DNA from: Alphaproteobacteria bacterium | GTDB lineage: Bacteria; Pseudomonadota; Alphaproteobacteria; UBA8366; GCA-2717185 | Assembly (NCBI GenBank): GCA_021774385.1 | Contig: JAJFJC010000025.1 | Span: 1 to 53,590 of the forward strand | Length of the DNA stretch: 53,590 nucleotides | Direction: 5' to 3' | Part shown: one piece after another, positions 7,501 to 27,119 of the stretch | Numbering within the stretch: position 1 is the first letter of the stretch | How the letters are laid out: each line of letters opens with the position of its first letter | The notes under the pieces: generated by a model | What the model saw: the letters and a program-made list of their open reading frames with translations, nothing else | Told to the model about the DNA's origin: nothing | Databases searched by the model: none | Translations under genes and position numbers: made by a program

Positions 7501-10500
7501 CATTGCCCGACGAGCCATCTATATCGTCATTGCCGCCACGGCCATCGATGAGGTCGTTGCCAAGGCCACCCAGCAAAATGTCATCGCCATCCGAGCCCGT
7601 GATACTTTGATCGCCCGTCGTGAGGACCTGAGCAATATTGACGAAGGTATCGATAAAGCCCGCGCCACTGACGGTACCGGCCTGAAAATCAACCGTAAGC
7701 CCATCAAAATCATAGACCAGGATGTCAGTGCCCGTACCGCCATCAATAAAATCATTGCCGAAACTGCCAAGAATAGTGTCATCGCCGCCCGCCGCATCAA
7801 TCGTATCGTTGCCCCCGCTCCCGATGAAGACATCGGCACCGGAACCACCGACGAATTGTTCGAAATTCGTAAAGCTGGAATTCGTTGAAAAGACCGATGC
7901 ACCGCCGCCGAACGAGAAATTATCAAGGGCGTAATTAAATGACGTGCTGTCACCCTGAATGACGACTGACGCGATGTCGGCTTGATCGCTCTGGAACCCA
8001 AAAAAAGAAGTTCCCGAGACCGCCAGCGTATCGGACAAAGAACCGCTGGAAGAAAAATTGATGGTGATGTCAAAAGCAGAGCCCATCGAGCTATTTGTAT
8101 CAAATCCGAACGCGGAGGATGGCGTGTCGAAGGTGATAGTGAGCGCGCGCGGTCCAGTTCCAATCAGGCTATCCAGAAAACCGCCGGCAAACCCACCACC
8201 GGCGTCGATATTAAAGAAACTCCCCGAGCCGACGGGAGTCGAGTAGGTGACGCCGGGCTCGATATCTCCGGCCACGAGACCCGCCTCGGTCGTGAACTGA
8301 TTGAGAATACCCGAATTGATCGGAAAATGACTGGTGGAGGTAAAATCCTCGAGCGTTGTGAAGCCGACCGCCGCATCGAAAACGGCCCGGCTGGCAAATT
8401 GCGTGATTGTCGTCAAGATCTGCGGGGGTGGAAGTGTCTGACTCGTGTTCTGAACATTGACCAACGTTCCTGCGGACAGATCGAAGATCATCGTTTCAGC
8501 GGTACCCGAGAAGCTCAGCGTATCGGTACCACTACCGCCGTCATAGAAGTCGTTACCCACGCTGCCGATGACCAGATCGTCGCCGGCGTCACCGCTAACG
8601 GTATCGTCACCACCGCCGCCATTGAGCGTATCGTCGCCGCCCGCGCCGGAAAGACTATTGTCGGCACCATTACCGGTAATCGTGTCGCCGCCGGCGCCAC
8701 CTTTGACATTCTCGATACCAATAAGCGTATCGCTGTCGATATCGATGCCAGAGGCCGACCCAGACCCAAGATTGACCGTGACCGGCTCAACGGCACTCGA
8801 AAATACCGCGGTATCAACGCCATCCCCACCATTGTATGTGTCGTTGCCTTGCCCGCTTGCCGCAATCAGCGTGTCATCGCCCGCACCACCGATTACGTTG
8901 TCGTTGCCGGCGCCACCAACCAGAAAATCATCACCTTCGCCACCATCGATAATATCGTTTCCATCGCCGCCCAAGATAACGTCGCCACCGCCTTCGCCAG
9001 ACAAATTGTCGCCGAAGCTACTGCCGATTATTTGCTCAGCCCCTTCACCACCGGCAAAGGATTGAGGCTCCGTAGCGCCTCTGCCATCGAACGTAATGGG
9101 AAGGCCGAATTCGCCAATCTCAAATTCAATGACTTCATCATCGTCATCATCATCTTCGTCTATGAGAGCTTCTCCGCCTTCTCCCTCACCGCCACCTGCA
9201 TCACCGCCGTCGCCGCCGTCACCACTAGAAGCCTTATCTGCTTCGTCCTTGCCGAAGTCGGGCTCTTCTTCCTCCTGTTGTTGTTGTTCTTGAATATTTT
9301 CATCGCTGAATTCGCCACCAGTAACACTGACAATGTCAACATTCTCTCCCTCGTCTCCCTCGTCTCCCTCGTCTCCCTCGTCTCCCTCGCCTTCATCGCC
9401 GTCACCCGCGGCTGGTGCGATATCCTCGAGGCCTCCTTCGCCTTCGCCTTCGCCCTCCCCTTCGCCCTTGGCTTCTTCACCTTCAGCCGGTCCTTCAACG
9501 CCGCCCAGTGAACGGCCTTCCGCCTCGCCCTCACCACCGGGCCGGCCTTCGCCTTCACCGCCAGTGGGGCCTTGCCCGCCCTGCGACGGCGCACCGAGGC
9601 CACCGGGAGCATTGCTGGCCGACCCATAATTGGCATCGATCTGGCTCTGCGACAGCACAACCGGTTCACTCGGCGGAGCGAGGAAATTGGTCACGATGGT
9701 CGTAGCGTATTGGTCACTCATGATGACCGTACCGCCCTGCGTCACGATCGCGATCTCGCCGTCGATGACCGTGAACTTCGTTTCTTCGCCAGCAGGCTTG
9801 ACGTCGCCGGCGACCTTGGTGCCGCGAATACCAATCGTGGCGACTGGCGTCGTTACGGTCATCTTGGTGTTGTCGGTCGACGCGATTTGGCCGCTGACGA
9901 AGACGAATACGCCCTTCAGGATCGAAAAGGAAGATTGACCCTGTTGGGTCGCGGGGTTGTAGACCATCTCGTCGAGGGCCAAACGCGCCGAATCGCCAAG
10001 CGCGAACGTTGTTTCGTCAACGAACAGCAAATTGATCGCGCCACCATCGCCGGTCTCGATCACGTCACCTTGGAAGACCGGATCGCCGGCCGACAGCGCG
10101 ACCCGCGTCCCATCGGTCCGCACCGCGAAGGCTTGTCCTGTGAGATCCTTTACCTGGCCAATCGGTTGCCCCGCCTGCGCCAATTGGTCACCGGCCGCCG
10201 CATATTGTCCTGCCGCCTCTGGCGGCGTGAAGGACCGCACCATTGCCGCCGTCATGCGGCCACCTTCGGGCGTCACCAGGTCGGGTGGATTGTCGAGCAG
10301 GAAGTAGTCACGAACGATAAATGTCGTCCCATCAGTACCGATCAGGACAAGATCATCGCCTTGCTGTAGATAAGCCGCATCGGACAAAAACCGACCGCTC
10401 GGCAACAATACCGATTCGCCCGGTGTCACATCAACGGTTGTGAGCGGCTCCAAACTGTCAGTATTTTCTAACCGGCCGACAGAAACCGGTGTCGTGGCTG

Positions 10501-10516
10501 GTGCGCGAAACGCCAC
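1..10516 (-). CDS. Giant RTX / FG-GAP repeat protein, probable type I-secreted adhesin (5' part only; the 3' end lies beyond the window start, more than 3,500 codons visible)
   Basis: The reverse frame with codon first bases at coordinate = 1 mod 3 is consistent at four hand-checked points (112, 3622, 8506, 10516). All 14 reverse ORFs the track lists in 1-10500 are in the 0 mod 3 frame and none is in this one, as expected for a frame with no stop in the window. GTG at 10514-10516 is the first start-capable codon after the in-frame TGA at 10553-10555, with GGAGAGGA ending 8 nt upstream. The translation carries AGDVNGDGxxDxxVGA (FG-GAP/VCBS) and GGxGxDxL (RTX) motifs throughout. Confidence 0.85.
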   Translation of the reverse strand, partial: MAFRAPATTPVSVGRLENTDSLEPLTTVDVTPGESVLLPSGRFLSDAAYLQQGDDLVLIGTDGTTFIVRDYFLLDNPPDLVTPEGGRMTAAMVRSFTPPEAAGQYAAAGDQLAQAGQPIGQVKDLTGQAFAVRTDGTRVALSAGDPVFQGDVIETGDGGAINLLFVDETTFALGDSARLALDEMVYNPATQQGQSSFSILKGVFVFVSGQIASTDNTKMTVTTPVATIGIRGTKVAGDVKPAGEETKFTVIDGEIAIVTQGGTVIMSDQYATTIVTNFLAPPSEPVVLSQSQIDANYGSASNAPGGLGAPSQGGQGPTGGEGEGRPGGEGEAEGRSLGGVEGPAEGEEAKGEGEGEGEGEGGLEDIAPAAGDGDEGEGDEGDEGDEGDEGENVDIVSVTGGEFSDENIQEQQQQEEEEPDFGKDEADKASSGDGGDGGDAGGGEGEGGEALIDEDDDDDDEVIEFEIGEFGLPITFDGRGATEPQSFAGGEGAEQIIGSSFGDNLSGEGGGDVILGGDGNDIIDGGEGDDFLVGGAGNDNVIGGAGDDTLIAASGQGNDTYNGGDGVDTAVFSSAVEPVTVNLGSGSASGIDIDSDTLIGIENVKGGAGGDTITGNGADNSLSGAGGDDTLNGGGGDDTVSGDAGDDLVIGSVGNDFYDGGSGTDTLSFSGTAETMIFDLSAGTLVNVQNTSQTLPPPQILTTITQFASRAVFDAAVGFTTLEDFTSTSHFPINSGILNQFTTEAGLVAGDIEPGVTYSTPVGSGSFFNIDAGGGFAGGFLDSLIGTGPRALTITFDTPSSAFGFDTNSSMGSAFDITINFSSSGSLSDTLAVSGTSFFGFQSDQADIASVVIQGDSTSFNYALDNFSFGGGASVFSTNSSFTNFEQFVGGSGADVFIGSGGNDTIDAAGGDDTILGSFGNDFIDGGTGTDILVYDFDGLTVDFQAGTVSGAGFIDTFVNIAQVLTTGDQSITGSDGDDILLGGLGNDLIDGRGGNDDIDGSSGNDIIIGGAGNDAIDGGDGDDSLFGDAGDDSIFGGAGNDTFVAASGEGNDTYNGGDGVDTVVFSSTSSALDIDLTEGFANGDFLVGNDRLIEIEGVTSGDGDDVILGSNSDNLILGAAGADTIEGLAGIDFLFGGAGNDIIDGGTGDDILDGGDGDDTLTGGAGSDIIGAGTGNDTLFASGDAADDTYDGGTGFDVLDYSNVGSPLTVDLGAQTAEFSTGSAAVLDTFVGIESFVGGSNGDEISTSAGVDTVDAGGGDDTIFGSFGNDFIDGGAGNNVLVYDFEGVTVDLQAGTVSGAGFIDTFVNIAQVLTAGDQNITGTGGDDTLPGGLGNDTIDGSGGNDNIDGSSGNDIILGGAGNDLLAGGDGGDTITGGAGDDTVDGGAGDDTLIAATGTGNDTYDGGDGADTIDFSSATNSVSVDLSTGFASGQDIDSDTLTNIEHVIGGAGNDTITGDALGNTLSGATGDDDIDGGAGDDVLLGDAGDDFLTDGLGADLSEGGAGNDTLFVSNDTSVDTFDGGTGEDTLELLVGGTVDLEQGTATTGATDTVTGIENVTGSASGDVIVGDANANTIDGGDGDDTLTGGAGDDVVIGGAGSDTLIAGSGLGDDDYDGGVGGIDTIDFSSTTLGISVDLFAGTASGDEIGNDTITGIDRVIGGTGDDLLIASDNGDTLEGGDGDDQLEGGTGNDRLDGGTGANLLLASAGNDVLTGGTQGTNDDFNQVDYSAGTASVVINLGDSGSDGSVSGSEFGTDTLQFIDRIFGSQAGDTFFASASHLGQFGSFNEFEGMQGDDTITGNDATRIGYSRSSAAVTVDLGAGTADDGFGGTDTLLGGISQVRGSSNDDTLLGGDGANFESFRGQAGNDFIDGGGGTNDRVDYLNSNAGVTVDLSGGATVTAGDGFGGTDTITNIERIRGSGFGDTLTGDAGNNKLEGEGGNDNLSGGDGSDTLEGDAGNDTLDGGAGVDLLKGGAGDDFLTGSIGGDFLNDFNTADYTDATAGITANMSTTGTVTGDASVGTDTLENIDRLFGSNFADTFTADNLHSANFGDFIDIEGQGGNDVINGNDNTRISYQKATGGVTVDFGAGTAVGDASVGSDTFTNVSQVKGSAFADTLVGSDGTDFESFRGLGGNDFIDGGGGTNDRVDYVGSGSGVTVDLSTGATVTVSDGLGGTDTITNIERIRGSEFDDTLTGDAGFNILQGRGGNDVLDGSGGADDLRGEDGDDTIVFDAADSAVDGGAGDDTLRVDGEGAGIDLTLSTPAISNIETVDLTGTGGNSLTISESSLLSVTDAENILVVTGDTDDKVFTTEAFSNGGTTNFEGVDFQLFTSGVGTLLVDTDITVTDSSELTLAPTSFSQLDGSNGFELLGGTASDLSGQAVSGLGDINNDGFADFGVAKAGNEAGPGDEIFVVFGAANTGSSVNLDDVGGSLPGFNIVAEGASDGLTQVADAGDVNGDGIDDLIVGTYNNGVGGAAYVVFGTGSFASSINLTNVAAGTGGFKIVGESAGDQAGASVAGAGDVNGDGFGDVIVGAPLDDANFRGSSGTAFVVFGSATPAATVNLSDVVNDNGGFAIFGEANIDLTGSAVSGAGDVNGDGIDDVLVGSSLNDGNGGASGSAYLIFGNAAGPTSIDLALLNTAQGVRMTGQAINNFAGTSVSAAGDVNGDGISDLIVGAIGNDEGGTDAGAAYVVLGANGFSSGSFVLGGNGYKIIGAVAGDDAGISVSGAGDINGDGIDDLLVGARANTGADTGSVFVVFGVSGGSSTIDLADVALGTGGFRITGEATDDFAGESVSAAGDVNGDGYDDLLVGAPGNDEGATGGGAAYIVYGGDFSSAVTQEGDVNANAFNGTAGIDVLIGGGGNDLLTGNGGADVLRGGSGDDTLLIGDATFSRLDGGLGDDTLTVSGAGVAVDLTAIGDEKLSGIETVGLTSNNTLTLESRDVAAMSDTNTLSVLGDGTNSIVTADTWDVGTNVTIESQEFFSFTRDGKTLLVDIDVDVDGVQTNLGIDLGLLNGANGFKIIGENGDDRAGQVSDAGDVNGDGIGDILVSAFQDDAGGVDAGAAYVLFGSTAGFSASIDLGAIAGGAGGFKITGEAAGDHATSAASAGDVDGDGFGDIILGATYNDISGTVTGSTYIVFGSAGPTAVDLSTAVLGTDFVKFVGEVSGDAAGFFVSSAGDVNGDGLDDVLIGAPFNDGAGASSGAAYVVFGDTFAPTSVLNLTDVVANFDGFKMTGEFSPDFAGLAVSAAGDVNGDGVDDIIVSAPGNDAGGSSAGAAYVVFGEADGGSSVSLGSLGTAGFKIIGQIDNDSAGGSVSGGGDFNGDGIADLIVGAAGDDTGGVDAGATYVIFGASGLGADIDLDAIPANGGIKIIGETAGDQSGYSVSIAGDVNGDGLDDVIIGAPTSTVGGTDSGAAFVVFGTTASITSINLTDVANGTGGFFIDGEAADDKAGGSQISNRGKAVSAAGDVDGDGFDDVLVGSELNDEGGVDAGAGYLIFGRDF
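2030..3440 (-). repeat. FG-GAP/VCBS repeat array 1 (about seven units)
   Basis: Same unit as array 2, for example AGDVNGDGIDDLIVG, AGDVNGDGFGDVIVGAP, AGDVNGDGISDLIVGA, AGDINGDGIDDLLVGA, AGDVNGDGYDDLLVGAP. Confidence 0.8.
3640..9080 (-). repeat. RTX (hemolysin-type Ca-binding) beta-roll module array with higher-order duplications
   Basis: Dense GGxGxDxL/I nonapeptides alternate with xVDLxxGxAxGxxxGxDTLxxIExVxGS linkers. Units of about 1.05 kb recur: the + strand shadow ORFs 6315-6563 and 7362-7610 are clear paralogs exactly 1047 bp apart. Units of about 0.79 kb also recur (FESFRGxxGNDFIDGGGGTNDRVDY at about 4070-4200 and 4860-4990). The array is interrupted at about 7870-8470 by a non-repeat insert. 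Confidence 0.75.
9345..9389 (-). repeat. Perfect 9-bp tandem repeat x5 (TCTCCCTCG on the + strand), in frame, encoding (GDE)n inside the acidic linker of the giant protein
   Basis: Counted base by base: five identical copies at 9345-9353, 9354-9362, 9363-9371, 9372-9380 and 9381-9389. Confidence 0.95.
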
Positions 10517-10629
10517 TACGGATATCCTCTCCGCCCCCTGTTGGCGCGCCTTTCACGTACCGAATTTACCCATCGGCATCGTGGCGCTTCCATTGTAACC
10601 CGGCCTTACCCCTAAAGCCGTTACGAGGC

Positions 10630-10743: not shown

Positions 10744-12096
10744 CTATTGTTTAGCGAGGCCGAGTGCGGCGGGTGTGAGGGTGCCGGTGCGGCGGGCCAG
10801 CAGGTAGCTGGCGATGCGGGCGTCGAACTCGGCCGAAATCTGGTTGATCCGCGCGCTGAACACCTCGCGCTCCGCGTCCAGAACGTTCAGCGACGTCTCC
10901 TTGCCCGCTTCCCGCAAGCGCTTCTTCGCATTGAACACCTCGATCGCCAAATTCACCGCGTTGTTCAGCAAGTCCACACGACGATGCTCCGTCAGCAAGC
11001 GGTCCCAGGCCACCCGGACGTCCTCCTCCACACGCCGTACCGCGAAATTGTAGCTGCTCTTCCGCGCCGCCAGTGTCCGCGTTGCGCTCTCAACCCGCGA
11101 CCGCGTCCGGAAACCGCTGAAAAACTCCCAACGCGCCCGAACCAATAGCGATTGCTCCCGCTCGATGCCCCGCGTCGTCCCCACATTCTTCTCGTAATCA
11201 AGCGTGCCCACAAGATCAACCGTCGGATAATAGTCCGCCCGCGCGATACGGCCCTGCTCGCGCGCCGCATCCGCCTGATAGCGCGTCTGACGCAAGGCCG
11301 GATGATATTGCGACGCCGTCGCGATCGCGCTCTCCAGGTCTGGCGCCACCAAATCCGCCGGCGGCACGCCCTCCTCAAGCGTCGACACCTCCGGCAAATG
11401 ACCGAAAAGCTGCTTGTAACGCGCCAGCGCTTCCTGCAAGCGGCCCTCGAACGCAACCCGCTGCTCCTTCGCCACCTGAAGGCGCGATTTCGCCTGCAAA
11501 ACATCAACCGCGATACCTGAACCGCGCTGAACCCGTTCGTCCTCAAGGCGAAGCTGCGTACGGATCGTGCTCTCCGTGCTCTGCGCCACCGCGATCAAAC
11601 GCACATTGCGCAAAACATCCAGATACTGGTTCAAACCCTGAAACAGCAATTCCTGGCGCGTGTTCTCAAGGCTCATCTGCTGCTCAACATGGCCCAGCTC
11701 CGCCGCGTTCAAACCCGCCTCGTCCCGGAAACCATTGAAAAGATTCTGTGTCGCCGTCAAGGTCAGCTTGTCCCGGCGGATGCTAAACGCGCCAAGGTCA
11801 CTCAAACGGCGCGTCGGCTCGTCCGTACGCTCCGAACCGCTATCCCCGGAAAGCTCAAAGCGCGGCAAATACGCCGCACGGGCCTCCTCGATACGCGCCC
11901 GTGCCGCGGAAGCCTCGTTCCGCGCCCGACGTAAATCCGGATGCTCCAAAAGCAAGCTGTCCAATTCCGGACGCAAAGGTTCGCCCGATACCGAAACCGA
12001 CATCGAAACAAACACCAATATCAACAGAAAGCTTAACGGCCTTAACCGCAATCTCGAACCCCGACCAATATGCGAACGCTCCTCTTTATCGCTCAT
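10744..12096 (-). CDS. tolC: TolC-family outer-membrane efflux/type I secretion protein
   Basis: 450 aa with a signal-like LSFLLILVFVSMSVSVSG. Two-repeat architecture with the typical LPRFELSGDSG, YYPTVDLVG and coiled-coil Arg/Glu/Ala-rich helices. Sits directly upstream of the RTX gene and is co-oriented with it. Confidence 0.85.
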   Translation of the reverse strand: MSDKEERSHIGRGSRLRLRPLSFLLILVFVSMSVSVSGEPLRPELDSLLLEHPDLRRARNEASAARARIEEARAAYLPRFELSGDSGSERTDEPTRRLSDLGAFSIRRDKLTLTATQNLFNGFRDEAGLNAAELGHVEQQMSLENTRQELLFQGLNQYLDVLRNVRLIAVAQSTESTIRTQLRLEDERVQRGSGIAVDVLQAKSRLQVAKEQRVAFEGRLQEALARYKQLFGHLPEVSTLEEGVPPADLVAPDLESAIATASQYHPALRQTRYQADAAREQGRIARADYYPTVDLVGTLDYEKNVGTTRGIEREQSLLVRARWEFFSGFRTRSRVESATRTLAARKSSYNFAVRRVEEDVRVAWDRLLTEHRRVDLLNNAVNLAIEVFNAKKRLREAGKETSLNVLDAEREVFSARINQISAEFDARIASYLLARRTGTLTPAALGLAKQ

Positions 12097-12448
12097 CCAA
12101 AGCCACCGGCGACAAAGCGCGCCAAGTGGTCCAATATTTCAAGAATCAATTGCCCCGCACAAATTAGAGCGGAACATCAAGGACATGACAAATTAACCTG
12201 AAAAAACCTCAAAATAAGAGACGAACTACTCTAGTGTTCTGCATCGTCAAATAATTTGCAAGTAATAATTACGAATTTAACAATCAATATGAACAAGATT
12301 ACAGCAAAAGCAAAACAATCATATGCTGCAAAACTAATATAAAATACACCAAATTTTGATGGACAATGTCGAACTTTCGCCGTGCCGGACGAACAAACAT
12401 CGCATATATAGTTTACTTTACCGTAGGGCGATAAGCTGGGGTTTAACG

Positions 12449-13066
12449 GTGAAAACGCACAGGCTTTTATTTTTCGGCACCGCGGCTTTGGTTCTTGGCT
12501 TAACCGCGATCATCGCAACATTTTGGGTACATGAAACGACGGGAAACCAAGCGCATACGCTTGTTCTCCAAAAAGCACTGCAAAATGTGATCCCACCACG
12601 CGATACCAAATTCAACCTCATCGATCATACTGGCAGGCCCGTGACGGAACGAACCTTTCGCGGCCGCTTCATGCTGGTCTATTTCGGCTATACGCGCTGC
12701 GTCGATATCTGTCCGCATGACCTCGCGGCGGTAGCCGGCGCGCTCGATCTGCTCCGGGACCGTGAAATCGAGATTCAGCCCCTATTCATCACCATCGACC
12801 CCGAAATAGACACGCAAGCGGTATTGTCCAACTATGTCTCTCTCTATCACCCGAAAATTATCGGCCTAACCGGCCCCCTCGCCCGAGTTACCGCGGCGGC
12901 GAAATCCTATGGCGCCTCCTTCGAGAAGGAGCAAATCCCAAGTTTTACCGGTCACGGGCATTCGGCGAACTTGTATCTAATCGGTCGCGATGGCGAGTTC
13001 TTGCGTGCTTTCCGTACCCCCACGACGGGAGAGGTCATCGCCTCTATCATCAAGCTTTATCCGTGA
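12449..13066 (+). CDS. SCO1/SenC-family copper chaperone / thiol-disulfide protein
   Basis: Motif FGYTRCVDICPHDL (CxxxCP) plus a downstream His (GHGHSANLYLIGRDGEF) and a single N-terminal TM helix. The track ORF starts at 12356, but that extension lies in AT-rich non-coding-looking sequence. GTG at 12449 (VKTHRLLFFGTAALVLG) is preferred. Confidence 0.8.
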   Translation: MKTHRLLFFGTAALVLGLTAIIATFWVHETTGNQAHTLVLQKALQNVIPPRDTKFNLIDHTGRPVTERTFRGRFMLVYFGYTRCVDICPHDLAAVAGALDLLRDREIEIQPLFITIDPEIDTQAVLSNYVSLYHPKIIGLTGPLARVTAAAKSYGASFEKEQIPSFTGHGHSANLYLIGRDGEFLRAFRTPTTGEVIASIIKLYP

Positions 13067-13113
13067 TATGGCGGGAAAGTGATATAGTCAGCCGACCCTA
13101 TCCAGGAGAGGCG

Positions 13114-14313
13114 ATGATGCGTGAAATCGACCGGAACAGGCAATTTCAACAGATTGAATCCTATATCGACGAATTAACAACAGTTCGCCGCGATATACAT
13201 CGGCACCCCGAAACCGCATATGAAGAGAACCGGACCGCCGATATCGTTGCCGCGCGCCTGGAAGCATGGGGTCTGGACGTACATCGAGGCCTCGGTGGCA
13301 CAGGCGTGGTAGGCACCCTCCGCAGCGGCGACTCTAATAGGGCCATCGGTTTTCGTGCCGACATGGATGCGCTGTTCATTCAGGAAAAAAACACGTTCGA
13401 CCACCGGTCGGTCCATGACGGAAAGATGCATGCCTGCGGTCATGACGGCCATACCACGATGCTTTTGGGTGCCGCGCGATATCTCTGCGAGAACAATGAT
13501 TTCAATGGCACGCTGCATTTTATATTTCAGCCGGCCGAAGAAGGCGAAGCCGGTGCCAAGGCGATGATGGATGACGGCCTTTTCGATCTATTCCCCTGCG
13601 ACGCCATTTACGGACTTCACAACATGCCGGGTATCGAAGCGGGGCATATTGGCTTGCGGGTTGGACCGATCCTCGCGGCCAGTGACCGCTGGACGGCGGA
13701 GTTTAAGGGGTCGGGTGGACATGGCTCGATGCCGCACAAGGGTACCGACCCAACCGTCGCGGTCGCGCAATTCATCGGTGCCATGCAAACCATCGTCAGC
13801 CGAAACGTGAATCCAATCGATACGGCGGCCATCAGCGTCGGTCATATCGCTGGCGGCGACCCCGGCGCCCTCAATATAATTCCGTCCGACGTTATCGTGG
13901 GCGGCACCGCGCGTTCCTTCACCGATACGACACGGGACATAATCGAGCGGCGGCTGGGCGAAGTTGCCGAAGCGGTTGCCGGCGCACATGGCTGCGATGT
14001 CGAACTTTCTTATATTCGCGGCTATCCGCCGACGGTGAATTGGCGCGAACAGACCGAAATCGCGGTGCGCGCCGCCGAAGCAGCGGTCGGCGCGGAACGA
14101 ACCGATCCCAACCTCAACCCCCTTCCCGGCGGCGAGGATTTCTCGTTCATGTTACAGCAAGTTCCTGGTTCTTATGCCTTCATTGGCAACGGATTTACGG
14201 ATCCGGACGAATTTGTTCATGCGCCGCGTTATGATTTCAATGATGACATCATCGCGAACGGCGTAAATTACTGGGTTGAACTGGCCAAAGCGGAACTCGA
14301 GGAAATGCCGTAA
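13114..14313 (+). CDS. M20D-family amidohydrolase (hippurate hydrolase / N-acyl-amino-acid amidohydrolase like)
   Basis: Motifs RRDIHRHPETAYEE, MHACGHDGH and FQPAEEG. ATG at 13114 is preceded by AGGAGAGG; the track ORF begins earlier, at 13063. Confidence 0.85.
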   Translation: MMREIDRNRQFQQIESYIDELTTVRRDIHRHPETAYEENRTADIVAARLEAWGLDVHRGLGGTGVVGTLRSGDSNRAIGFRADMDALFIQEKNTFDHRSVHDGKMHACGHDGHTTMLLGAARYLCENNDFNGTLHFIFQPAEEGEAGAKAMMDDGLFDLFPCDAIYGLHNMPGIEAGHIGLRVGPILAASDRWTAEFKGSGGHGSMPHKGTDPTVAVAQFIGAMQTIVSRNVNPIDTAAISVGHIAGGDPGALNIIPSDVIVGGTARSFTDTTRDIIERRLGEVAEAVAGAHGCDVELSYIRGYPPTVNWREQTEIAVRAAEAAVGAERTDPNLNPLPGGEDFSFMLQQVPGSYAFIGNGFTDPDEFVHAPRYDFNDDIIANGVNYWVELAKAELEEMP

Positions 14314-14478: not shown

Positions 14479-15420
14479 TTAACACTGCCTCAAATTCTCT
14501 TTATCCGGGCCGGCACAGGGCAACAGCCCGCCAACCGCTCCCGAAAGATCCCCCGCTCCAATTGCATCCATCATTTCGCGTGCGTTGGCATCGCTTGGTG
14601 ATGCAATCAACGCCGAGGCCTGAGGCACGGACTTCAGCGCAGCTTTAGCATCCTCGGCTCGCTTCATTTGCGCTGCCTTGTATTGTTGGTCGGCTCCCGC
14701 CGAGGCGGACGCATCTGTAGCGGAAACAAGCTTCGCGGCCTGACCGGCGACAAATAACCTGGCTAATTGCGCAGCCGAACGTTTTTGCAGCCAGTGGCTC
14801 ATTTTGCCCTGGGAAAACAGGACGATTTCAAAGGACTGATTTATTGGATGCCCCGCTCCCAGCATCGTAGCGAAAGCCTCGCCGCTGATTTCCGGACGGG
14901 CCAGGCCATGACACTTCATGCAATTGACCGCCAGATCGTAGGGCATCGAGGCCCAGGCCAACCCGGCATGCTTGGAATCGGCAATCCGCTTGGATTTGTG
15001 ATCCGCCGTCTCCGCTTCCCGCTTGACGTTCTTGCCGCCATAATCGAAGTGGATGGGCTCCCAGTTGGACGAGGCGCCGTGGCAGCTTTCGCAGGAGGGG
15101 CCGGTCTTGATTTTAGGCTTGGCTTCCGCTGATTTCCGTTCACTCGAATAATGGCAGACGACGCAGTCCTTGTTGCGCTTCATGTTCTTCTTGCCGCCCA
15201 CGGCAACAGCAATCTTCTTCGCGTCCTTCGCCTTGTGCACGTTGCGGTACGAGGAGAAATGCTTGGTTCCTTCCCAAACCTTATATTCATCCCTGTGGCA
15301 ATCCTGGCAGGTTTTCAAGCCTTGTGAAAAGGGTTTGGCGATCGCCGACGGCGTCCATGCGAACGCCGCGAACAATATCGCCAATAACGCCGTCAAACGT
15401 CCGATGGATGAAACCGACAT
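14479..15420 (-). CDS. Tetraheme c-type cytochrome, secreted/periplasmic
   Basis: Signal peptide ending AWTPSAIA. Four CxxCH motifs (CQDCH, CVVCH, CESCH, CMKCH). Ala/Gln-rich C-terminal third ending in two Cys. SD GGGGGAG lies before the ATG. Confidence 0.85.
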   Translation of the reverse strand: MSVSSIGRLTALLAILFAAFAWTPSAIAKPFSQGLKTCQDCHRDEYKVWEGTKHFSSYRNVHKAKDAKKIAVAVGGKKNMKRNKDCVVCHYSSERKSAEAKPKIKTGPSCESCHGASSNWEPIHFDYGGKNVKREAETADHKSKRIADSKHAGLAWASMPYDLAVNCMKCHGLARPEISGEAFATMLGAGHPINQSFEIVLFSQGKMSHWLQKRSAAQLARLFVAGQAAKLVSATDASASAGADQQYKAAQMKRAEDAKAALKSVPQASALIASPSDANAREMMDAIGAGDLSGAVGGLLPCAGPDKENLRQC

Positions 15421-15540
15421 GACTCCCCCTAGACCAATTAATTAAAAAAACGGCTTGCAGATAGCGCGCCCTATAGATCGTCAATGACTTTTGACCAGCC
15501 GCGAAATACCGGTCTGTCGAGACCGCTGACAAAGCGGCCC

Positions 15541-16947
15541 CTAGAAGGCGATGTTTATTTTCGTCCGAATTCCATATCCGTTATCGATGGAATCTTGCAT
15601 CACGGCAAATCCGCCGACTTCAAAAAATGTATGCTGATTGAGTTTCTGTGAATAACGCACCGCAGCGCCGAAACGGTCGATCCCGCCCGGCGAATTATCA
15701 TCCTTGCCGCCAATTTCGAAGACCAGGTTTCTGTCGAGGGAGGGCCATATCAACTGGTAGCCAATCGCGCCGCCATAGGTATCGTTGGCTCTATTGCTGA
15801 TTGCCGCGCCGGCCAAACCGTTTCCGGAGAACAATAAACCAGTAAGACTCAGCGGCCCGCCCCTTTCGCGCGAAGCGGGTGCATAGGCCCCCTCGGCCGC
15901 GAATAAATTCACATACATGATATCGTCGGTCCGTTTCGGCGCCCAGGAAAAGCTTGTGTAAAGCAAGGTGCCGTCCGTGGCCTGTGCGGTTTCTTGGTCC
16001 GGCGTAAAGGACGATGCGAGATGGACCTTTGTATCGACGGCGCGTTCGAAGAAGACAAAGCCATGCGTAAAACTGGCCCCGATATTAAATTGATCGCCGA
16101 TGACATCGCTGCTGTCGACATAAATCATATCAAGATCGACCGTTGAGTGCGCGATATCGGCAGACGTGAAAATGCCATACAATTCGCCATCAGGATCGTC
16201 AATATTGTTACTTCGTTGAACGTTGTTCACACCCACAAAACCGCCAATGCGCGCGAAATTGGAGCCTGGAAACGGAATCGTGCTTCTCGTAACAGCGATC
16301 GAATCCATTGTGTCGTTAATCAATATGCCGTCTTGAATGATGGCACGTTGTCGGCCAAAGGAAAATTCGTAGTCGAGCGGTAACCGACCGAGCCAATCGA
16401 TTTTTGGAAATATTTCCGACAGCTCACCCTCAAAAAATGCAGTGGTTAAGCGAAGGTTCGTTTCGTTTTCAAACCCGGATTCCGGTTGAAACGAATATCG
16501 GGTTCGTGGTCCGCCTTCGCGCTCCAAAGGGGAAATGCCCACCAAAATTCGCTCCGTACCGCTGAGTGTTAGATTCAGGAACAAGTCCAGTCTGGTCACA
16601 AAATCGATTGAGGTATCGGCAACCCCGTTGTCCGTAACTTCCAATCCTGTATTGATAAATCCGTACAACAACAGGCCGGGCGATATGATCATACCCGTGG
16701 GCAATTCGAATTCGCAGCAGTACTCCCCTTCGTTTACGTAGTCCTGAAACAATTCGAAAATTGGCTTCGGACGCGGTGGAAAGTCCTTCTGTTCCTTGAG
16801 CCCAGGCACCTTGTCTGAGTAGCGTGACGGACTTTCGGCGGCGGGCTTGGCGCTGGACTTTTTATCATCGGCAAAAACATCATTCGAAAATCCGATACCG
16901 AAACCGATAAGAGTGAAAACGCCAGTGATGATGATTTTTTTCAACAT
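15541..16947 (-). CDS. Outer-membrane beta-barrel protein (porin-like), family unassigned
   Basis: Signal peptide MLKKIIITGVFTLIGFGIGFSNDVFA. No heme motifs. Alternating hydrophobic strands with Gly/Asn/Asp turns. C-terminal KINIAF (terminal Phe). FGRQRAIIQDG resembles alginate-export-type barrels. The track start at 16968 is possible, but ATG at 16947 gives a canonical signal peptide. Confidence 0.7.
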   Translation of the reverse strand: MLKKIIITGVFTLIGFGIGFSNDVFADDKKSSAKPAAESPSRYSDKVPGLKEQKDFPPRPKPIFELFQDYVNEGEYCCEFELPTGMIISPGLLLYGFINTGLEVTDNGVADTSIDFVTRLDLFLNLTLSGTERILVGISPLEREGGPRTRYSFQPESGFENETNLRLTTAFFEGELSEIFPKIDWLGRLPLDYEFSFGRQRAIIQDGILINDTMDSIAVTRSTIPFPGSNFARIGGFVGVNNVQRSNNIDDPDGELYGIFTSADIAHSTVDLDMIYVDSSDVIGDQFNIGASFTHGFVFFERAVDTKVHLASSFTPDQETAQATDGTLLYTSFSWAPKRTDDIMYVNLFAAEGAYAPASRERGGPLSLTGLLFSGNGLAGAAISNRANDTYGGAIGYQLIWPSLDRNLVFEIGGKDDNSPGGIDRFGAAVRYSQKLNQHTFFEVGGFAVMQDSIDNGYGIRTKINIAF

Positions 16948-16957
16948 GTTAGGCACT

Positions 16958-18745
16958 CTACTTTCCAATTTTCACCGTCTCGGTTTTTTCCCACAGGTTC
17001 ATGCTTAGGTCGACCACCCGCTTCGCCAACTCGCGCAAGGAGAAGTTATAGTCGAGCCCAACACCGGAAATGACGTGGACAAAAAATGCCGGCATCGGTT
17101 GGGCAATCAGCTTCATATTCACCGTGTAGGTTTCGCCCGGCTTCAACAGATCGGAATCGACGGAGTAACTTGCCCAACGGTGACCGCCAGGCTCAATGCT
17201 GTTCTTCAACGTGCGGGCGCTTTGCGGGCGCATAAGGATGGCGGTCGAATTCGTGGGGGGACGGATAAACGGCCGGACCGCGGCCGAGAACGGAACAAAC
17301 CGCAATTGCGTGCGCTCGCCACCCCAAAATGTTCGGGTCATGAAATGGCTTTCCAGATTGAACAGTTGTTTGTCGAATTCCACTTCGCCATTGCGCACGT
17401 AACGGGAGTAGCGCTCTCGCAGGTCGCCGTTCGGATCGCGGTCGCCGGATTTGAAAACGACCTCACCCTGGCTGTCCTTGACCGTGACCTGGAAAAACAC
17501 CATCCGTTCATGGATGAAGCCCGATGGCGCGTTATGACCGAGCACGGCATTTCTCAGTTTGATCTTGAAGTTGAGACCGCTGCTCATATTGGCATCGTCG
17601 ATGACGACCTCATCCACCTTATACCCAGCCTTCATTAACGCATCGCGCTGACCCTTGGCCCAGCCCAACAGTTCGAACTGCTCGTCGAGAATTTCCCGGG
17701 CTTCGTAGCGCAAATTCTGATCCTGCCAGAATTTCGGGAACTTATAATCGTCGGCGACGTCGTCCTCGAATTTGTCCGTACCCCAACCCTTTTTGTGGTC
17801 GAACTCTAGCCATTGCTCGTAGGTCGCGATCTGCACCGCATCTGGATTATGTGGAAAGATACCGGGATGCAGAACCGAGAAATCCGGCCCGGCAAAATAG
17901 TGATTCGACAGCCGCCGATGCTTGGTCTCGGTCTTGCCGATCACCGCGCCGGGCCCCTTGGAGAATCCCTTATTCTCACCCGGTACCTTGCCCATGTGGC
18001 AATCTTGGCATGTTACGCCGTCGCGGGCCGATTGCGAGGTGCGGTATTCGTCGAAGGTTTCCTCATTGTGCAAGCCGGTCGGCAACCTCGATGAATGGCA
18101 ATTGCTACAGAAGGTCGAGGCCCTGAGAAACGAATAGGGTTCGACCTTGCCATGGATCTTCCGGCCTTTCTTGCCGGGTTTGGTGACCAGAGACAGCGAG
18201 GCGTCTTTTTCGGCCTCGGCCTGGATTTTGTTGTTGGTCGGTCCAAAGATCGGCGCAAAGATATCCCCTTTTGTGATCTTCGCCCGCGCGCTGCGTTTGC
18301 CATAGCGTTCGGCGAATCGGTGACAAACGACGCAGGTAATCCCTTCGATCACCGGACCCAGGAAGTCCTCGCCCGCTCGCGCGAATTGCGCTCTCTTCAT
18401 GTTGGAAATCTGCATAACCTTCAATACCGCCGCCAACGGTGCGTGACACCGCGAACAAGTGTCGGCCGAGGTGCTGTTGACTTTGGACAGGAGCGCAAGC
18501 TCCGTCGAGACGAAGAAGGGGCTCAGATTGGCATAGGCATGCTGCGAGGCGGACCACTGACGAAACTGAATCTCATGACAGGATTTGCATTCGAAAGCGG
18601 AGGGGAACTGCTTGTTTCGAAAAAGCTCCTCGTGCGCTTTGTCTTCGTCGACTTTGCCACCGGCCTTTTGTGCCAACGCCGATCCCGTGATCGCCATGGC
18701 CAACGACAGGATAATTGCAAACAGTACCCTCGATTGCGAAAACAT
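16958..18745 (-). CDS. Pentaheme c-type cytochrome with a large heme-free C-terminal domain, secreted/periplasmic
   Basis: Signal peptide ending GSALA. Five CxxCH motifs (CKSCH, CSRCH, CVVCH, CSNCH, CQDCH) within the first 260 aa or so, followed by about 330 aa without Cys-heme motifs. SD AAGGGGG lies 5 nt before the ATG. Confidence 0.85.
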   Translation of the reverse strand: MFSQSRVLFAIILSLAMAITGSALAQKAGGKVDEDKAHEELFRNKQFPSAFECKSCHEIQFRQWSASQHAYANLSPFFVSTELALLSKVNSTSADTCSRCHAPLAAVLKVMQISNMKRAQFARAGEDFLGPVIEGITCVVCHRFAERYGKRSARAKITKGDIFAPIFGPTNNKIQAEAEKDASLSLVTKPGKKGRKIHGKVEPYSFLRASTFCSNCHSSRLPTGLHNEETFDEYRTSQSARDGVTCQDCHMGKVPGENKGFSKGPGAVIGKTETKHRRLSNHYFAGPDFSVLHPGIFPHNPDAVQIATYEQWLEFDHKKGWGTDKFEDDVADDYKFPKFWQDQNLRYEAREILDEQFELLGWAKGQRDALMKAGYKVDEVVIDDANMSSGLNFKIKLRNAVLGHNAPSGFIHERMVFFQVTVKDSQGEVVFKSGDRDPNGDLRERYSRYVRNGEVEFDKQLFNLESHFMTRTFWGGERTQLRFVPFSAAVRPFIRPPTNSTAILMRPQSARTLKNSIEPGGHRWASYSVDSDLLKPGETYTVNMKLIAQPMPAFFVHVISGVGLDYNFSLRELAKRVVDLSMNLWEKTETVKIGK

Positions 18746-18777: not shown

Positions 18778-18819
18778 ATTGTATTGGGCTAGATTCGGGC
18801 CGTTATTGATCTATATCAA
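18778..18819 (-). promoter_or_regulatory. Class II FNR/FixK-type promoter: TTGATCTATATCAA box (18806-18819) plus a TACAAT -10 element (18783-18778, reverse strand)
   Basis: Perfect TTGAT-N4-ATCAA palindrome. The box centre (18812.5) is about 41.5 bp from a TSS predicted about 7 nt downstream of the -10 (about 18771). This leaves a leader of about 26 nt before the ATG at 18745. Confidence 0.65.
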
Positions 18820-19040: not shown

Positions 19041-19718
19041 TTAAACGGCCTCGGTACCTTTTACGATATGATCGTGAAGGGAATGAAATGCGGTCTCTAA
19101 ATTTTCGCCGAACAACGGATCCGCGTTCCCGGCGAAGGCATCATCGATGTCACGCCAGTCTTTCTCGGTCAACGTCATCTTGGCCGCGGGAATAATCTTT
19201 TCCTCTTCGAGGCGCATATGTTGGCGTTGTGATGCGATAAAATTCTCCGCCTTCGTCGCCAAATCCTCGAGCCCATTTGGATAATTCATTTCGTATGCCT
19301 TTAATGCGGCATCAAGTTCGTCAATCTGGCGTTCGCCCGCGGTGTGTTGATCGATTAGCTCGTCCAGAACCTCTCCGATATTGGGGCTTCGCATTCGGAC
19401 TGCCCTAAAAAGATGGTGCTCTTCCTTTGGATGATGAAACTGGTTGGGAAAGACGCGAATGTAATAAACGATGGAATAGAGCAGATTGAGATCAGGCACC
19501 TTCCGCGACTGGATTTTGTGGCCAAGCGCCGCGAGCCGCCTCCCATCGTAAGCCCGCAAATATTGAACGACGTCACGTAGGCAGGCCAAAACACGCGCGT
19601 AGTCTCTATGCTCCGACTGAATTCTCTCGATTGCACTCGCCATACCGACACCCAAAATTCGAAAACCCAATGCTTCTATTACTGGTATTGCCCGACTGGG
19701 AAGCACGCCATGATTCAT
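19041..19718 (-). CDS. Hemerythrin (HHE cation-binding) domain protein
   Basis: IQSEHRDYARVL and HHPKEEHHLF His/Glu-rich helices. An alternative start at 19643 (MASAIERIQSEH) is plausible. Confidence 0.7.
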   Translation of the reverse strand: MNHGVLPSRAIPVIEALGFRILGVGMASAIERIQSEHRDYARVLACLRDVVQYLRAYDGRRLAALGHKIQSRKVPDLNLLYSIVYYIRVFPNQFHHPKEEHHLFRAVRMRSPNIGEVLDELIDQHTAGERQIDELDAALKAYEMNYPNGLEDLATKAENFIASQRQHMRLEEEKIIPAAKMTLTEKDWRDIDDAFAGNADPLFGENLETAFHSLHDHIVKGTEAV

Positions 19719-25523: not shown

Positions 25524-27119
25524 ATGACAAGGCGTCTTTCTGTCCCCGAGGTAACGTCGATTCTCGCCGATGGTGGCGAAATTGCTTTCATCGACGTGCG
25601 CGAGATCGTCCCGTTCGGGACCGGTCATCCACTACTCGCGGCCAATGTGCCGTTGTCTCGCATGGAATTGGATTTTGGAAGGCTTGTTCCCAGACTAGAT
25701 ACGCGAATTGTGTTTACCGATGGCGGCGATGGCCTATCCGAACTCGCGGCGGCTCGAATTGAAGCGCGGCGTTATACAAATGTGTCGGTATTGGACGGTG
25801 GCGCACCGGCTTGGACAGCTGCCGGCGAAGCCTTATTCCCCGAAATCGAAGTTCCCGCGAAAGGGTTCGGCGCATTCGCGAGAATCAACGGAAAACCGAA
25901 TTTCATCTCTCCCCCGGACCTCGATCGCGCCCTAAAGTCCGACGAAGATTGGGTCGTCCTCGATAGCCGGCCAAGCCGGGAATATGGTTGGGGCAACATC
26001 CCCGGCAGCACCAACGTACCGGGCGCCGATCTTGTCCGATGGTTCGATGATTTGGTACCCAATCCAAACACCAAGGTCGTCGTTAATTGCATGAGCGGAA
26101 CCCGAGGTATCCTGGGCGGTCTGAGCTTGGTTGCCGCTGGCGTTCCCAACGAAGTCCGTGTCTTGTTCCACGGCACCCGCGGCTGGCTCCTGGATGGGTT
26201 GGCGCTTGAGAAAGGTGCGAACCGCAAGGCGGGGCCGGTCTCGGCTGAGTCCCGCGCGGCAGGTGTCGCCCGTGCCGCCCGGATCGCGGAAAATGCCAAC
26301 ATCCAGCGAATCGATACGAACACGCTCGAAGGCTGGCTTGGCGAGCCCGACCGCACGACGTATCTCTTCGATGTCCGGAGCCGGCAAGAATTCGAAGCGG
26401 GCCATATACCGGGATCATGCTGCACGCCGGAAGGCACGCTGCCGATGAGCCCCGAGCGTTATTTCGCGACCTCGAACGCGCGCTATGTCCTGATCGACGA
26501 CGATACCGTGCGCGCAACGGTAACGGCATTATGGCTCAGGCAAATGGGATGGGGCGACGTTGTCGTCCTTCTGGACGGACTAGAGGGAACGCCCCTTGAA
26601 ACAGGACCTGAGCCTGCACCAGAAATCGAACCTTCCATAAACCAGTCACCGGAAATTAACCCAAAGAACCTTGAAGCACTTTGCAAGGCGGGATCGGTCC
26701 GGATCATCGATACCGGCACGTCGGACGCCTACGAAGCAGGGCATATTTGCGGTGCGATCTGGTGCTCGCGTGTCGCACTATCTGAATTTTTGGCTTCAGA
26801 ACCACACGATGGCGCGACGGTCTTGACCAGTGAAGAGGGGATAGTCGCCAGTCTCGCGGCGGGAGATTTACCGCCAGCGGTTCAAGAAACATTGTCCGTG
26901 CTAAAGGGCGGGAATACCGCGTGGCGCGGTGCAGGGCACGAACTCGTAACCGGAGCCGAAGATTTGGCATCGGCACGAGACGACCACTGGCTGGCGTCCT
27001 CGGAACGGCCTGGCGATGTCCGCCAAAACGTTGTCGATTATCTGGAATGGGAAATTACACTATTGGACGATATCGCGCGCGGCGGACCGGTTCCCTATCA
27101 AAACCTGATTTGGAACTAA
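25524..27119 (+). CDS. Multi-rhodanese-domain sulfurtransferase-like protein
   Basis: Four tandem rhodanese-like modules of about 120-130 aa. Only one carries an active-site loop (VVNCMSGTRG). Confidence 0.75.
   Translation: MTRRLSVPEVTSILADGGEIAFIDVREIVPFGTGHPLLAANVPLSRMELDFGRLVPRLDTRIVFTDGGDGLSELAAARIEARRYTNVSVLDGGAPAWTAAGEALFPEIEVPAKGFGAFARINGKPNFISPPDLDRALKSDEDWVVLDSRPSREYGWGNIPGSTNVPGADLVRWFDDLVPNPNTKVVVNCMSGTRGILGGLSLVAAGVPNEVRVLFHGTRGWLLDGLALEKGANRKAGPVSAESRAAGVARAARIAENANIQRIDTNTLEGWLGEPDRTTYLFDVRSRQEFEAGHIPGSCCTPEGTLPMSPERYFATSNARYVLIDDDTVRATVTALWLRQMGWGDVVVLLDGLEGTPLETGPEPAPEIEPSINQSPEINPKNLEALCKAGSVRIIDTGTSDAYEAGHICGAIWCSRVALSEFLASEPHDGATVLTSEEGIVASLAAGDLPPAVQETLSVLKGGNTAWRGAGHELVTGAEDLASARDDHWLASSERPGDVRQNVVDYLEWEITLLDDIARGGPVPYQNLIWN

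Follow-up and report, generated by a model that had tools for sequence, protein, structure and literature searches.

How do multiheme cytochromes work together with an outer-membrane barrel that is too small to sheathe them? The question is raised by a locus in a 53,590-nucleotide stretch of DNA (contig JAJFJC010000025.1; called the window in the following) from an uncultured marine, probably alphaproteobacterial, metagenome-assembled genome (MAG), in which one operon encodes a pentaheme cytochrome c, an outer-membrane β-barrel and a tetraheme cytochrome c. A preliminary description of this triad, made from the sequence alone, proposed a possible new class of porin-cytochrome electron conduit. 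It will be shown here that the three genes are ptdA, ptdB and ptdD, i.e. that the system has already been named and is not a new class, and that its barrel, as modelled, is quite different from those of the MtrCAB-type conduits. The evidence tips slightly in favour of another role, with ptdABD as the periplasm/outer-membrane end of the Ptd system, acting as an FNR-induced, Cyc2-like pore-capping reductase of an extracytoplasmic acceptor.

Identity and conservation of the gene cluster

The cluster ptdABCDEFG, named after its penta-, tetra- and decaheme cytochromes, was introduced in 2023 by Elbon et al. for Alphaproteobacteria of the order UBA11136 from oxygen-deficient zones (ODZ). In their preprint, PtdA is described as a c552 homologue with a β-sandwich and PtdF as 'ferric reductase-like', ptdAB is reported to be strongly transcribed in the anoxic ODZ of the eastern tropical North Pacific (ETNP), and the distribution is given as marine and saline Alpha- and Gammaproteobacteria, Nitrospirales and Planctomycetes; the scaffolds of that study broke off after ptdAB (bioRxiv 10.1101/2023.11.21.568154). 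The window genes are assigned to this system because they agree with the published PtdA, PtdB and PtdD in gene order, number of hemes and domains, and the marine, low-oxygen habitat signal is the same. The published cluster has seven genes, whereas in the window A, B and D form a single operon, and a tblastn search with representatives of all four remaining genes, ptdC, ptdE, ptdF and ptdG, gave no match in the 53.6 kb. These four may be located elsewhere in the source genome. Neither the FNR-type promoter nor the ~18-strand architecture nor the ABD-only variant described below is mentioned in the preprint (bioRxiv 10.1101/2023.11.21.568154), and no later work on ptd was found in the searchable literature. 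A cluster from a Methylobacter bioanode was considered as a further Ptd example and turned out to belong to the MtrAB family, and the MHCscan paper concerns cytochromes with more than 10 hemes.

The elements of the preliminary description, namely three co-oriented genes with signal peptides, five plus four hemes and a barrel ending in KINIAF, were all found in the open reading frames (ORFs), which are intact and closely spaced on the minus strand at the positions originally assigned (Table 1). Each of the three N-termini consists of a hydrophobic signal segment followed by an AxA-type cleavage site, and none of the three proteins has a lipobox. Among the ORFs of more than 100 aa in the window, only ptdA and ptdD carry any CXXCH motif, so that the clustering of the cytochromes is not due to chance. 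For ptdB, the alternative start is a TTG at 16968 (ORF 15541-16968), which would overlap ptdA by 11 nt. The ATG is more likely to be the start, since it matches a 466-aa orthologue and leaves a gap of 10 nt after ptdA. Because a scan for intrinsic terminators and sigma-70 promoters gave nothing above the shuffled expectation, the ends of the operon rest on gene spacing.

With each GTDB species represented by one genome, the scan yielded 388 genomes that contain a PtdB relative, and the best 80 loci were fetched. They span Alpha- and Gammaproteobacteria, Nitrospinota, Nitrospirales, Planctomycetota, Verrucomicrobiota, Lentisphaerota, Acidobacteriota, Latescibacterota, Binatia and others, about ten phyla altogether. 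In 78 of these 80, ptdA lies directly 5′ of ptdB, the remaining two ending at contig edges, and the barrels that follow ptdA are 36-93% identical to that of the window. For 57 of 84 gene pairs, the gap lies between −11 and +30 nt. The triad is therefore a conserved unit, as had been surmised. All seven gene types are present in the fetched DNA of 43 loci, and in 23 of them the order is exactly A-B-C-D-E-F-G. Heme numbers are conserved as well, with five in PtdA (78/85), four in PtdD (74/76) and ten in PtdG (43/51). The absence of a lipoprotein cytochrome, noted already in the preliminary description, is also a property of the families at large, where lipobox-like motifs are scarce (PtdA 8/85, PtdD 6/68, PtdG 1/51). 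Gene identity and synteny, like the fold classes and the promoter motif considered below, may be taken as shown.

The carriers are mostly marine or saline, and the relatives of the window are marine MAGs, among them those from the ETNP and Saanich Inlet. Cultured carriers are Roseibium/Labrenzia sp. PHM005, Breoghania sp. L-A4, Tistlia consotensis USBA 355, Colwellia sp. KU-HH00111, Oceanospirillum beijerinckii and Ferruginivarius sediminum.

The barrel PtdB

PtdB has a signal peptide, and the final Phe of its KINIAF terminus is nearly invariant in the family. A C-terminal Phe is typical of outer-membrane proteins. The AlphaFold2 (AF2) model, with a predicted local distance difference test score (pLDDT) of 82, contains 18-19 long strands according to DSSP, and its best Foldseek matches are 18-strand monomeric channels: MOMP of Campylobacter, OccK/OpdK/OprD, AlgE and chitoporin. 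At the sequence level the family stands alone. No Pfam or NCBIfam model was matched by PtdB itself or by 43 members of its family, even at E≤1. This includes the models suggested at the outset as a check, MtrB/PioB (TIGR03509), Alginate_exp and porins such as OprP, none of which was matched by the 43 members. A search of the PDB with the PtdB sequence returned only noise. In a deep hidden Markov model search of 1.84 billion representative proteins, the family was found to be discrete and closed, with 841 representatives and no informative distant tail linking it to a named porin superfamily.

The part of PtdB that would face PtdA is an N-terminal periplasmic segment with the conserved pattern E-L-x3-F-x3-G...ELPTG. 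Some family members have an extra domain at this end on a long linker, which is SPOR-like, i.e. of a peptidoglycan-binding type, in P0267 and P0257, and a Cds6_C NTF2-like domain in P0024. These additional periplasmic domains suggest that the N-terminus may be a docking or tethering arm. The conserved charges of the barrel comprise 27 acidic and 14 basic residues overall, and they are balanced, 8 versus 7, at strand positions predicted to face the lumen. The Cys-Cys pair in YCCEF, which had been singled out together with the two Cys at the end of the tetraheme protein, is indeed present, but both features are clade-specific, occurring in only 6 of 43 PtdB and 14 of 66 PtdD family members, respectively.

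The cytochromes PtdA and PtdD

PtdA consists of a Sec signal peptide, a five-heme domain of the PHC type, a family-specific, conserved insertion of ~125 aa and a C-terminal β-sandwich. The heme motifs are, in order, CKSCH, CSRCH, CVVCH, CSNCH and CQDCH, the last of which ends at residue 250, followed by ~345 heme-free residues. The insertion, between heme 5 and the β-sandwich, bears the invariant H282, H293 and H299 in the motif HPGIFPHN, while the sandwich bears a GHNxPxGF motif, here GHNAPSGF at residues 403-410, with H404 invariant.

The sole solved structure that resembles PtdA is cytochrome c552 of Thermochromatium tepidum (PDB 5ZE8). It was matched with E values of 6e-5 by sequence and 1e-13 by profile, and it is also the only significant Foldseek match (E 5.6e-11) of the AF2 model of PtdA (pLDDT 74.6), in which the C-terminal domain is rich in β-strands. 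The two proteins have five hemes in the same order, an Ig-like sandwich and the motif HxxPTG in common. c552 is shorter, however, with 435 aa, and lacks the insertion. In 2025, c552, ExtKL and Gsu2801 were combined into the PHC family of pentaheme cytochromes, which have an Ig-like domain (PMC11976967). PtdA has the features of this family, i.e. the five CXXCH motifs in order, the Ig-like sandwich with HxxP(T/S)G and the 5ZE8 fold. The model thus points to a globular two-domain protein with a β-sandwich rather than a slim, MtrA-like rod.

Matches to other family models are weak and generic for multiheme proteins. The most specific of them, to the NCBIfam ExtKL model NF040886, covers residues 12-253 at E 2.1e-9, with 36 bits compared to a cutoff of 250. 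An MtrC-domain Pfam model is marginal (30.8 bits, cutoff 30) and aligns to the generic heme region only, and the window cytochromes reach no more than E 0.005-0.02, ~15 bits, against TIGR03508 (MtrA/DmsE), the cutoff of which is 192.

PtdD, with the motifs CQDCH, CVVCH, CESCH and CMKCH, is homologous to the tetraheme gene of the canonical ptd clusters. It belongs to the cytochrome c554 family PF13435 (48.7 bits, cutoff 20.8) and matches cytochrome c554 of Nitrosomonas europaea (PDB 1BVB, E 5e-8), which is likewise periplasmic and has four hemes. It is not a CycA equivalog, reaching 48 bits with that NCBIfam model, for which the cutoff is 400. Unlike the Nitrosomonas protein, PtdD has an Ala/Gln-rich C-terminal tail of ~140 aa, and it contains four invariant non-motif His residues (H54, H124, H191 and H209). 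These distal His residues suggest that all four hemes could be bis-His and six-coordinate. For the five hemes of PtdA, six invariant non-motif His residues are available according to the family conservation analysis. Since all motifs are CXXCH, none is the catalytic CXXCK, and enough invariant extra His residues are present, we infer that the hemes of PtdA and PtdD serve electron transfer rather than catalysis.

The ptdA promoter

Upstream of ptdA there is a perfect FNR/FixK-type box, TTGATCTATATCAA, which occurs only once in the window and the center of which is 67.5 nt upstream of the ptdA ATG. A TACAAT −10 element follows at 29.5 nt from the center of the box, corresponding to class II spacing, and no −35 element could be found. 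The ptdA promoter would thus be of the class II activator-dependent (FNR/CRP) type, for which the absence of an ordinary promoter from the sigma-70 consensus scan is expected. The FNR/FixK-type promoter of the preliminary description is therefore borne out, and it is kept in the closest relatives: the box is at an equivalent position in the two closest loci, L005 (−74) and L008 (−62), and occurs in four further members of the clade. In total, 7 of 83 ptdA upstream regions contain it, compared to ~0.4 expected, and all but one of the seven belong to the clade of the window, the wider family being without it. Judged from this distribution, the box is a clade-specific regulatory adaptation. With FNR control of ptdABD, induction is expected when oxygen is scarce, which fits the reported high expression of ptdAB in anoxic water.

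Directly upstream of this promoter, on the same strand, lies a gene for a hemerythrin HHE-domain protein (Table 1), a type of protein that binds O2 or iron. It is probably not a part of the ptd system, since among the relatives only the near-identical L005 has it beside ptd, but its place next to an FNR-controlled operon is worth noting.

The electron-supply module and its variants

In the canonical cluster, the compact A-B-D triad is complemented by the decaheme PtdG and by an NAD(P)H-linked inner-membrane module, PtdC/E/F. The compactness emphasized in the preliminary description is thus not intrinsic to the system. PtdC has an N-terminal membrane anchor and the domains FAD_binding_6, NAD_binding_1 and Fer2 ([2Fe-2S]), PtdE is cytoplasmic with three cNMP-binding-like domains and 4Fe-4S clusters, and PtdG is anchored to the membrane by its N-terminus. 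PtdF is a polytopic membrane protein of ~270 aa that is covered by no Pfam model. In the Nitrospirales sequence at L003:11161-11976 and its homologues, two pairs of His residues are invariant, H74/H88 and H247/H261, the residues of each pair being 14 positions apart and each pair lying on one transmembrane helix. Such an arrangement is characteristic of transmembrane electron carriers of the bis-heme-b type. Between the helices there is also a large, conserved, soluble helical domain with an ERIP motif.

The clade of the window consists of marine MAGs labeled Rhodospirillaceae or Thalassospiraceae and of two Nitrospinota, with PtdB identities of 49-93%. Its operon is A-B-D. In L012, L013, L016 and L018 the genes C/E/F/G form a separate, adjacent operon in the opposite orientation, while none of them was found within 10 kb in L011, nor on one side in L008, L010 and L017. 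The notion that an inner-membrane partner is missing is hence correct locally, in the window, but not in general, as the clade either keeps the module in a separate operon or does without it. Loci with long flanks that contain only A-B-D or only A-B occur also in Planctomycetota (L056, L072, L066, L078), and the A-B-D arrangement recurs in the independent long-flank genomes L011, L056 and L072. From these arrangements, A-B is seen to be the invariant core and D its usual partner, with C/E/F/G as a separable electron-supply module.

In a number of Nitrospirales (L003, L024, L033, L035, L036 and L045), a 155-aa protein consisting only of a [2Fe-2S] ferredoxin takes the place of PtdC, and PtdE is absent, giving the order A-B-c-D-F-G. 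On account of this replacement, the electron input side of Ptd is evidently interchangeable.

One gene, P0367, codes for a head-to-tail PtdA-PtdB fusion of 1098 aa, present in two assemblies (L088:6001-9297 and L089:1030-4326), by which PtdA is placed at the periplasmic N-terminus of the barrel. The fusion gene is followed by an octaheme cytochrome made of two c554 domains and by a PtdG-like cytochrome. PtdC, PtdE and PtdF are absent from this cluster, and the organism is rich in guanine and cytosine (GC). An apparent PtdB-PtdC fusion, P0338, was rejected as a frameshift artefact, its junction and tail being of low complexity and Arg-rich.

Proposed mechanism

In the mechanism that we favour, PtdB would be an outer-membrane channel of ~18 strands with PtdA docked at its periplasmic mouth, probably via the conserved N-terminal segment of PtdB. 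The docking is suggested by the tight coupling of A and B, by the conservation of this segment and the domain additions to it, and by the P0367 fusion. Together with the openness of the pore and the exposure of a PtdA heme towards it, and with the substrate and the outward sense of electron flow, it belongs to what we infer from the sequences. As a barrel of this size could not enclose a heme chain and there is no surface cytochrome, the substrate would need to come into the pore, where a soluble or chelated species from outside would meet the exposed heme of PtdA, as has been proposed for Cyc2. PtdD, a c554-type tetraheme protein, would shuttle electrons between inner-membrane carriers and PtdA.

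The canonical path may be written as NAD(P)H → PtdC (FAD → [2Fe-2S]) → PtdE ([4Fe-4S]) → PtdF → PtdG → PtdD → PtdA, with PtdF carrying the electrons across the inner membrane via two b hemes. From established bioenergetics, a chain which oxidizes NAD(P)H would be expected to run outward only. The canonical Ptd chain can be viewed as a split NOX/ferric-reductase-like system that would be energetically sensible in the outward direction only. Because the canonical cluster forms such a path, the system would most likely serve to reduce an acceptor outside the cytoplasm, for which Fe(III) or Mn and metalloid or halogen oxyanions are candidates. In the clade of the window, with the NAD(P)H module unlinked or absent, PtdABD would be linked to other periplasmic carriers.

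For the topology, the closest parallel is Cyc2, in which a cytochrome plugs a 16-strand barrel on the periplasmic side and the substrate enters the pore (PMC8406198). Both systems have a small barrel, 16 strands compared to ~18 in PtdB, and a cytochrome on the periplasmic N-terminal side, and the P0367 fusion has the same order as Cyc2, cytochrome and then barrel. However, Cyc2 is a single polypeptide with one heme, while PtdA, a 60-kDa pentaheme protein that includes a β-sandwich, is as a rule a protein of its own. The two systems share no detected sequence similarity, and electrons probably flow through them in opposite directions.

A second parallel is provided by extHIJKL(MNOPQS) of Geobacter sulfurreducens. 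Like Ptd, it combines a pentaheme cytochrome of the PHC family (ExtKL) with a porin-like protein (ExtI) and has no outer-membrane multiheme cytochrome. The extended ext cluster encodes cytochromes with 4, 10 and 12 hemes as well as a cytochrome b, and thus shares 4-heme, 10-heme and b-type cytochromes with Ptd. With ExtHIJKL alone, Geobacter retains ~50% of its Fe(III)-oxide reduction and ~75% of its Mn(IV)-oxide reduction, and selenite and tellurite are reduced less when ExtI is lost. Ext may therefore be regarded as an experimental precedent for an outer-membrane function of a PHC cytochrome and a porin-like protein in which no surface multiheme cytochrome takes part. The systems are nevertheless not equivalent. 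The heme domains of ExtKL and PtdA are homologous, but given the low score with the ExtKL model the proteins are not orthologues. Ptd has neither the rhodanese lipoprotein ExtH nor ExtJ nor selenocysteine, and the sole rhodanese gene of the window lies ~7 kb away on the plus strand, unlinked to ptd. ExtI has been described as weakly OprP/FmdC-like, whereas PtdB matches no porin model. Finally, the inner-membrane module is of the Rieske/cytochrome b type in Ext and of the NAD(P)H/FAD/Fe-S/di-heme b type in Ptd.

It is important to point out that a number of observations weigh against the proposed mechanism. The outward direction is deduced from the canonical cluster, which is absent from the window, and a module consisting of ABD only could run inward. 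The strand count of PtdB comes from one AF2 model, and the conserved charges of the barrel give no clear selectivity signal. The P0367 fusion probably goes back to a single sample and may be due to an error in sequencing. The PtdA insertion with its three invariant His residues could be a catalytic or metal site instead of a source of heme ligands. The authors who named the system call its function 'completely unknown' (bioRxiv 10.1101/2023.11.21.568154).

Alternative explanations

A more far-reaching version of the same scheme, which we regard as a tentative proposal with clearly less behind it, is that PtdAB constitutes a third architectural class of redox machinery in the outer membrane, in which a multiheme cytochrome caps a small, dedicated 18-strand channel, that it combines a Cyc2-like topology with an Mtr-like number of hemes and that, together with C/E/F/G, spends NAD(P)H on the reduction of an extracellular solute. 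The candidates would then be organically complexed Fe(III), in reductive iron acquisition, Mn, iodate, selenite, or O2 reduced to superoxide. Under this proposal, the FNR-controlled ABD of ODZ bacteria could correspond to the hitherto unassigned biological reductase of iron (or iodate) at the secondary nitrite maximum.

The serious rival is an inward, Cyc2-like Fe(II) oxidation in the ABD-only version of the system. Here, PtdAB would oxidize a soluble external donor, such as the Fe(II) that builds up where water is deficient in oxygen, at the pore, and PtdD would pass the electrons on to the respiratory chain. The Cyc2-like topology, with a small barrel, a periplasmic-side cytochrome and one fusion with the cytochrome N-terminal to the barrel, is compatible with this direction, and so is the absence of the NAD(P)H module from the window and several relatives. 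FNR control and high transcription in the ODZ suit conditions under which Fe(II) is stable, and chemolithotrophs (Nitrospirales, Nitrospinota) are among the carriers. However, most genomes wire A-B to the NAD(P)H-oxidizing, NOX-like module, which makes sense thermodynamically only if it runs outward, and the one characterized homologue, c552 of T. tepidum, is described as low-potential, a property more in keeping with reduction than with the oxidation of Fe(II). We thus consider inward flow to be unlikely, even though it has to be taken seriously for genomes such as that of the window.

Another option is that PtdA is a periplasmic enzyme, a reductase or oxidase of N-oxides or other small molecules, with PtdD as its c554-type partner and PtdB as a supply channel. 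This is the alternative offered in the preprint. PtdA is in the same COG as NrfA and has weak matches to NrfA and octaheme nitrite reductases, and PtdD resembles the Nitrosomonas c554 that is the partner of hydroxylamine oxidoreductase. The cluster is, moreover, frequent in nitrite oxidizers, Scalindua and ODZ bacteria, and PtdA has both the conserved, His-rich insertion and an unusually high conservation, with ~45% identity across phyla. Against this, no CXXCK motif is present in PtdA, the match to PF02335 (Cytochrom_C552) extends over 31 residues only and, with 20.9 bits, stays below the cutoff of 24.1, and the invariant His residues are sufficient for every heme to be six-coordinate. A dedicated channel would be superfluous for small N-oxides, and yet no other partner of ptdA is linked to it as tightly as ptdB, and many of the carriers are ordinary marine heterotrophs. 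An enzymatic role of this kind appears rather improbable to us.

The mechanism implied by the preliminary description, and the leading analogy of the preprint (bioRxiv 10.1101/2023.11.21.568154), is an Mtr-like wire, in which a cytochrome is threaded through PtdB and electrons are passed directly to minerals or electrodes at the cell surface. As in MtrCAB, MtoAB and PioAB, genes of multiheme cytochromes flank that of a barrel, a cytochrome-barrel-cytochrome synteny recalling the mtr/pio/pcc logic, and envelope electron transfer is the presumed role. It can also be argued that a size below that of MtrB is predicted for the Pcc and Ext porins of Geobacter, with 21 transmembrane segments given for ExtI. 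The MtrB-type barrel, however, has 26 strands, as needed to house the decaheme MtrA, and is accompanied by a surface lipoprotein cytochrome (PMC8406198). The barrel of the window, by comparison, has ~18 predicted strands, shows no likeness to the MtrB/PioB models and is best matched by narrow, substrate-specific channels. The cytochromes have five and four hemes, no lipoprotein or otherwise surface-targeted cytochrome is encoded, and PtdA is globular. The hosts are mostly marine aerobes, nitrite oxidizers and planctomycetes, which are not known as mineral respirers. These properties set the locus apart from MtrCAB, MtoAB/PioAB and the Pcc conduits of Geobacter, as the preliminary description had itself maintained, and they also make the conduit mechanism that it had borrowed from them quite improbable.

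That the three genes are unrelated neighbors, or a decaying and functionless ptd remnant, can practically be dismissed, since the lack of four of the seven canonical genes in the window is outweighed by three intact ORFs with signal peptides, by the recurrence of ABD in independent genomes, by a PtdA identity of 75-97% within the clade, which implies purifying selection, by the conserved FNR promoter and by the high in situ transcription of ptdAB (bioRxiv 10.1101/2023.11.21.568154).

Genomic context

The coordinates of the operon, of its promoter elements and of the neighboring features are collected in Table 1.

Table 1. Features of the ptd locus and its surroundings (positions in the window; GC, guanine-cytosine content as a fraction).
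Feature	Position	Strand	Description
ptdA (cytA)	16958..18745	minus	595 aa, periplasmic pentaheme cytochrome c
ptdB	15541..16947	minus	outer-membrane β-barrel, 468 aa from ATG at 16947
ptdD (cytB)	14479..15420	minus	313 aa, periplasmic tetraheme cytochrome c554-like
FNR/CRP-family box	18806..18819	minus	TTGAT-N4-ATCAA, perfect palindrome
candidate −10 hexamer TACAAT	18778..18783	minus	putative, read from the sequence
hemerythrin HHE-domain gene	19041..19718	minus	225 aa, GC 0.50
SCO1/SenC copper chaperone gene	12356..13066	plus	GC 0.53
M20 amidohydrolase gene	13063..14313	plus
TolC-like outer-membrane efflux protein (OEP) gene	10744..12096		450 aa
giant ORF	2..10552	minus	at least 3517 aa, runs off the start of the window
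rhodanese gene	25524..27119	plus
second lower-GC stretch	45000..47000		GC 0.48-0.52 vs ~0.58

The operon had been taken for an acquired, low-GC insert. As for composition and structure, this could not be substantiated: the GC dip is small (ptdB 0.50, ptdA 0.55 and ptdD 0.57, compared to 0.57 for the window), no tRNA, integrase signature or flanking repeat was found at the locus, and the tRNA and flanking-repeat searches thus gave no structural trace of a recent insertion. The comparison of genomes, on the other hand, favours transfer. The flanking genes are common only to the window and the near-identical L005, other lineages having different neighborhoods, and PtdA of the two Nitrospinota (L017, L018) is 75-77% identical to that of the alphaproteobacterial MAGs, which equals the level within the alphaproteobacteria. 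The variable neighborhoods and the high cross-phylum identity make horizontal transfer of the ptd module likely, and the latter indicates that transfer of ptdABD between phyla was recent.

Some further features of the window should be mentioned. The gene of a SCO1/SenC copper chaperone overlaps that of an M20 amidohydrolase by 4 nt. The pair, an odd functional combination, is convergent with ptdD and was found near ptd in none of the relatives examined. Directly downstream of the gene for a TolC-like efflux protein there is a giant ORF with FG-GAP/VCBS-like GDVNGDGxDD repeats, which probably encodes a type I-secreted giant adhesin; the plus-strand ORFs in its region, which have no family matches, are likely to be spurious. 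The second stretch of lower GC lies between a gene with a glutamate-synthase domain and one for a pyridine-nucleotide disulphide oxidoreductase. Neither nod/qNor nor further ptd genes were found in the rest of the window, where an 804-aa ORF proved to be a TPR-methyltransferase.

Conclusions

Ptd is a widespread system, present in at least 388 species-level genomes of about ten phyla, mostly marine or saline. For the clade whose truncated scaffolds led to the discovery of ptd, the window supplies a complete context, namely a stand-alone ptdABD with a class II FNR promoter. The present analysis further contributes the architecture of the barrel as an argument against the Mtr analogy, as well as evidence for horizontal transfer. 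The list of cultured carriers opens the way to genetics on Ptd, so that the system is experimentally approachable as well as biogeochemically relevant. If the NAD(P)H-driven mechanism in which the substrate enters the pore is correct, Ptd would provide ordinary marine bacteria with a novel route to the extracytoplasmic reduction of iron, manganese, iodate or oxygen, and it would bear on the cycling of trace metals and nitrogen in low-oxygen water.

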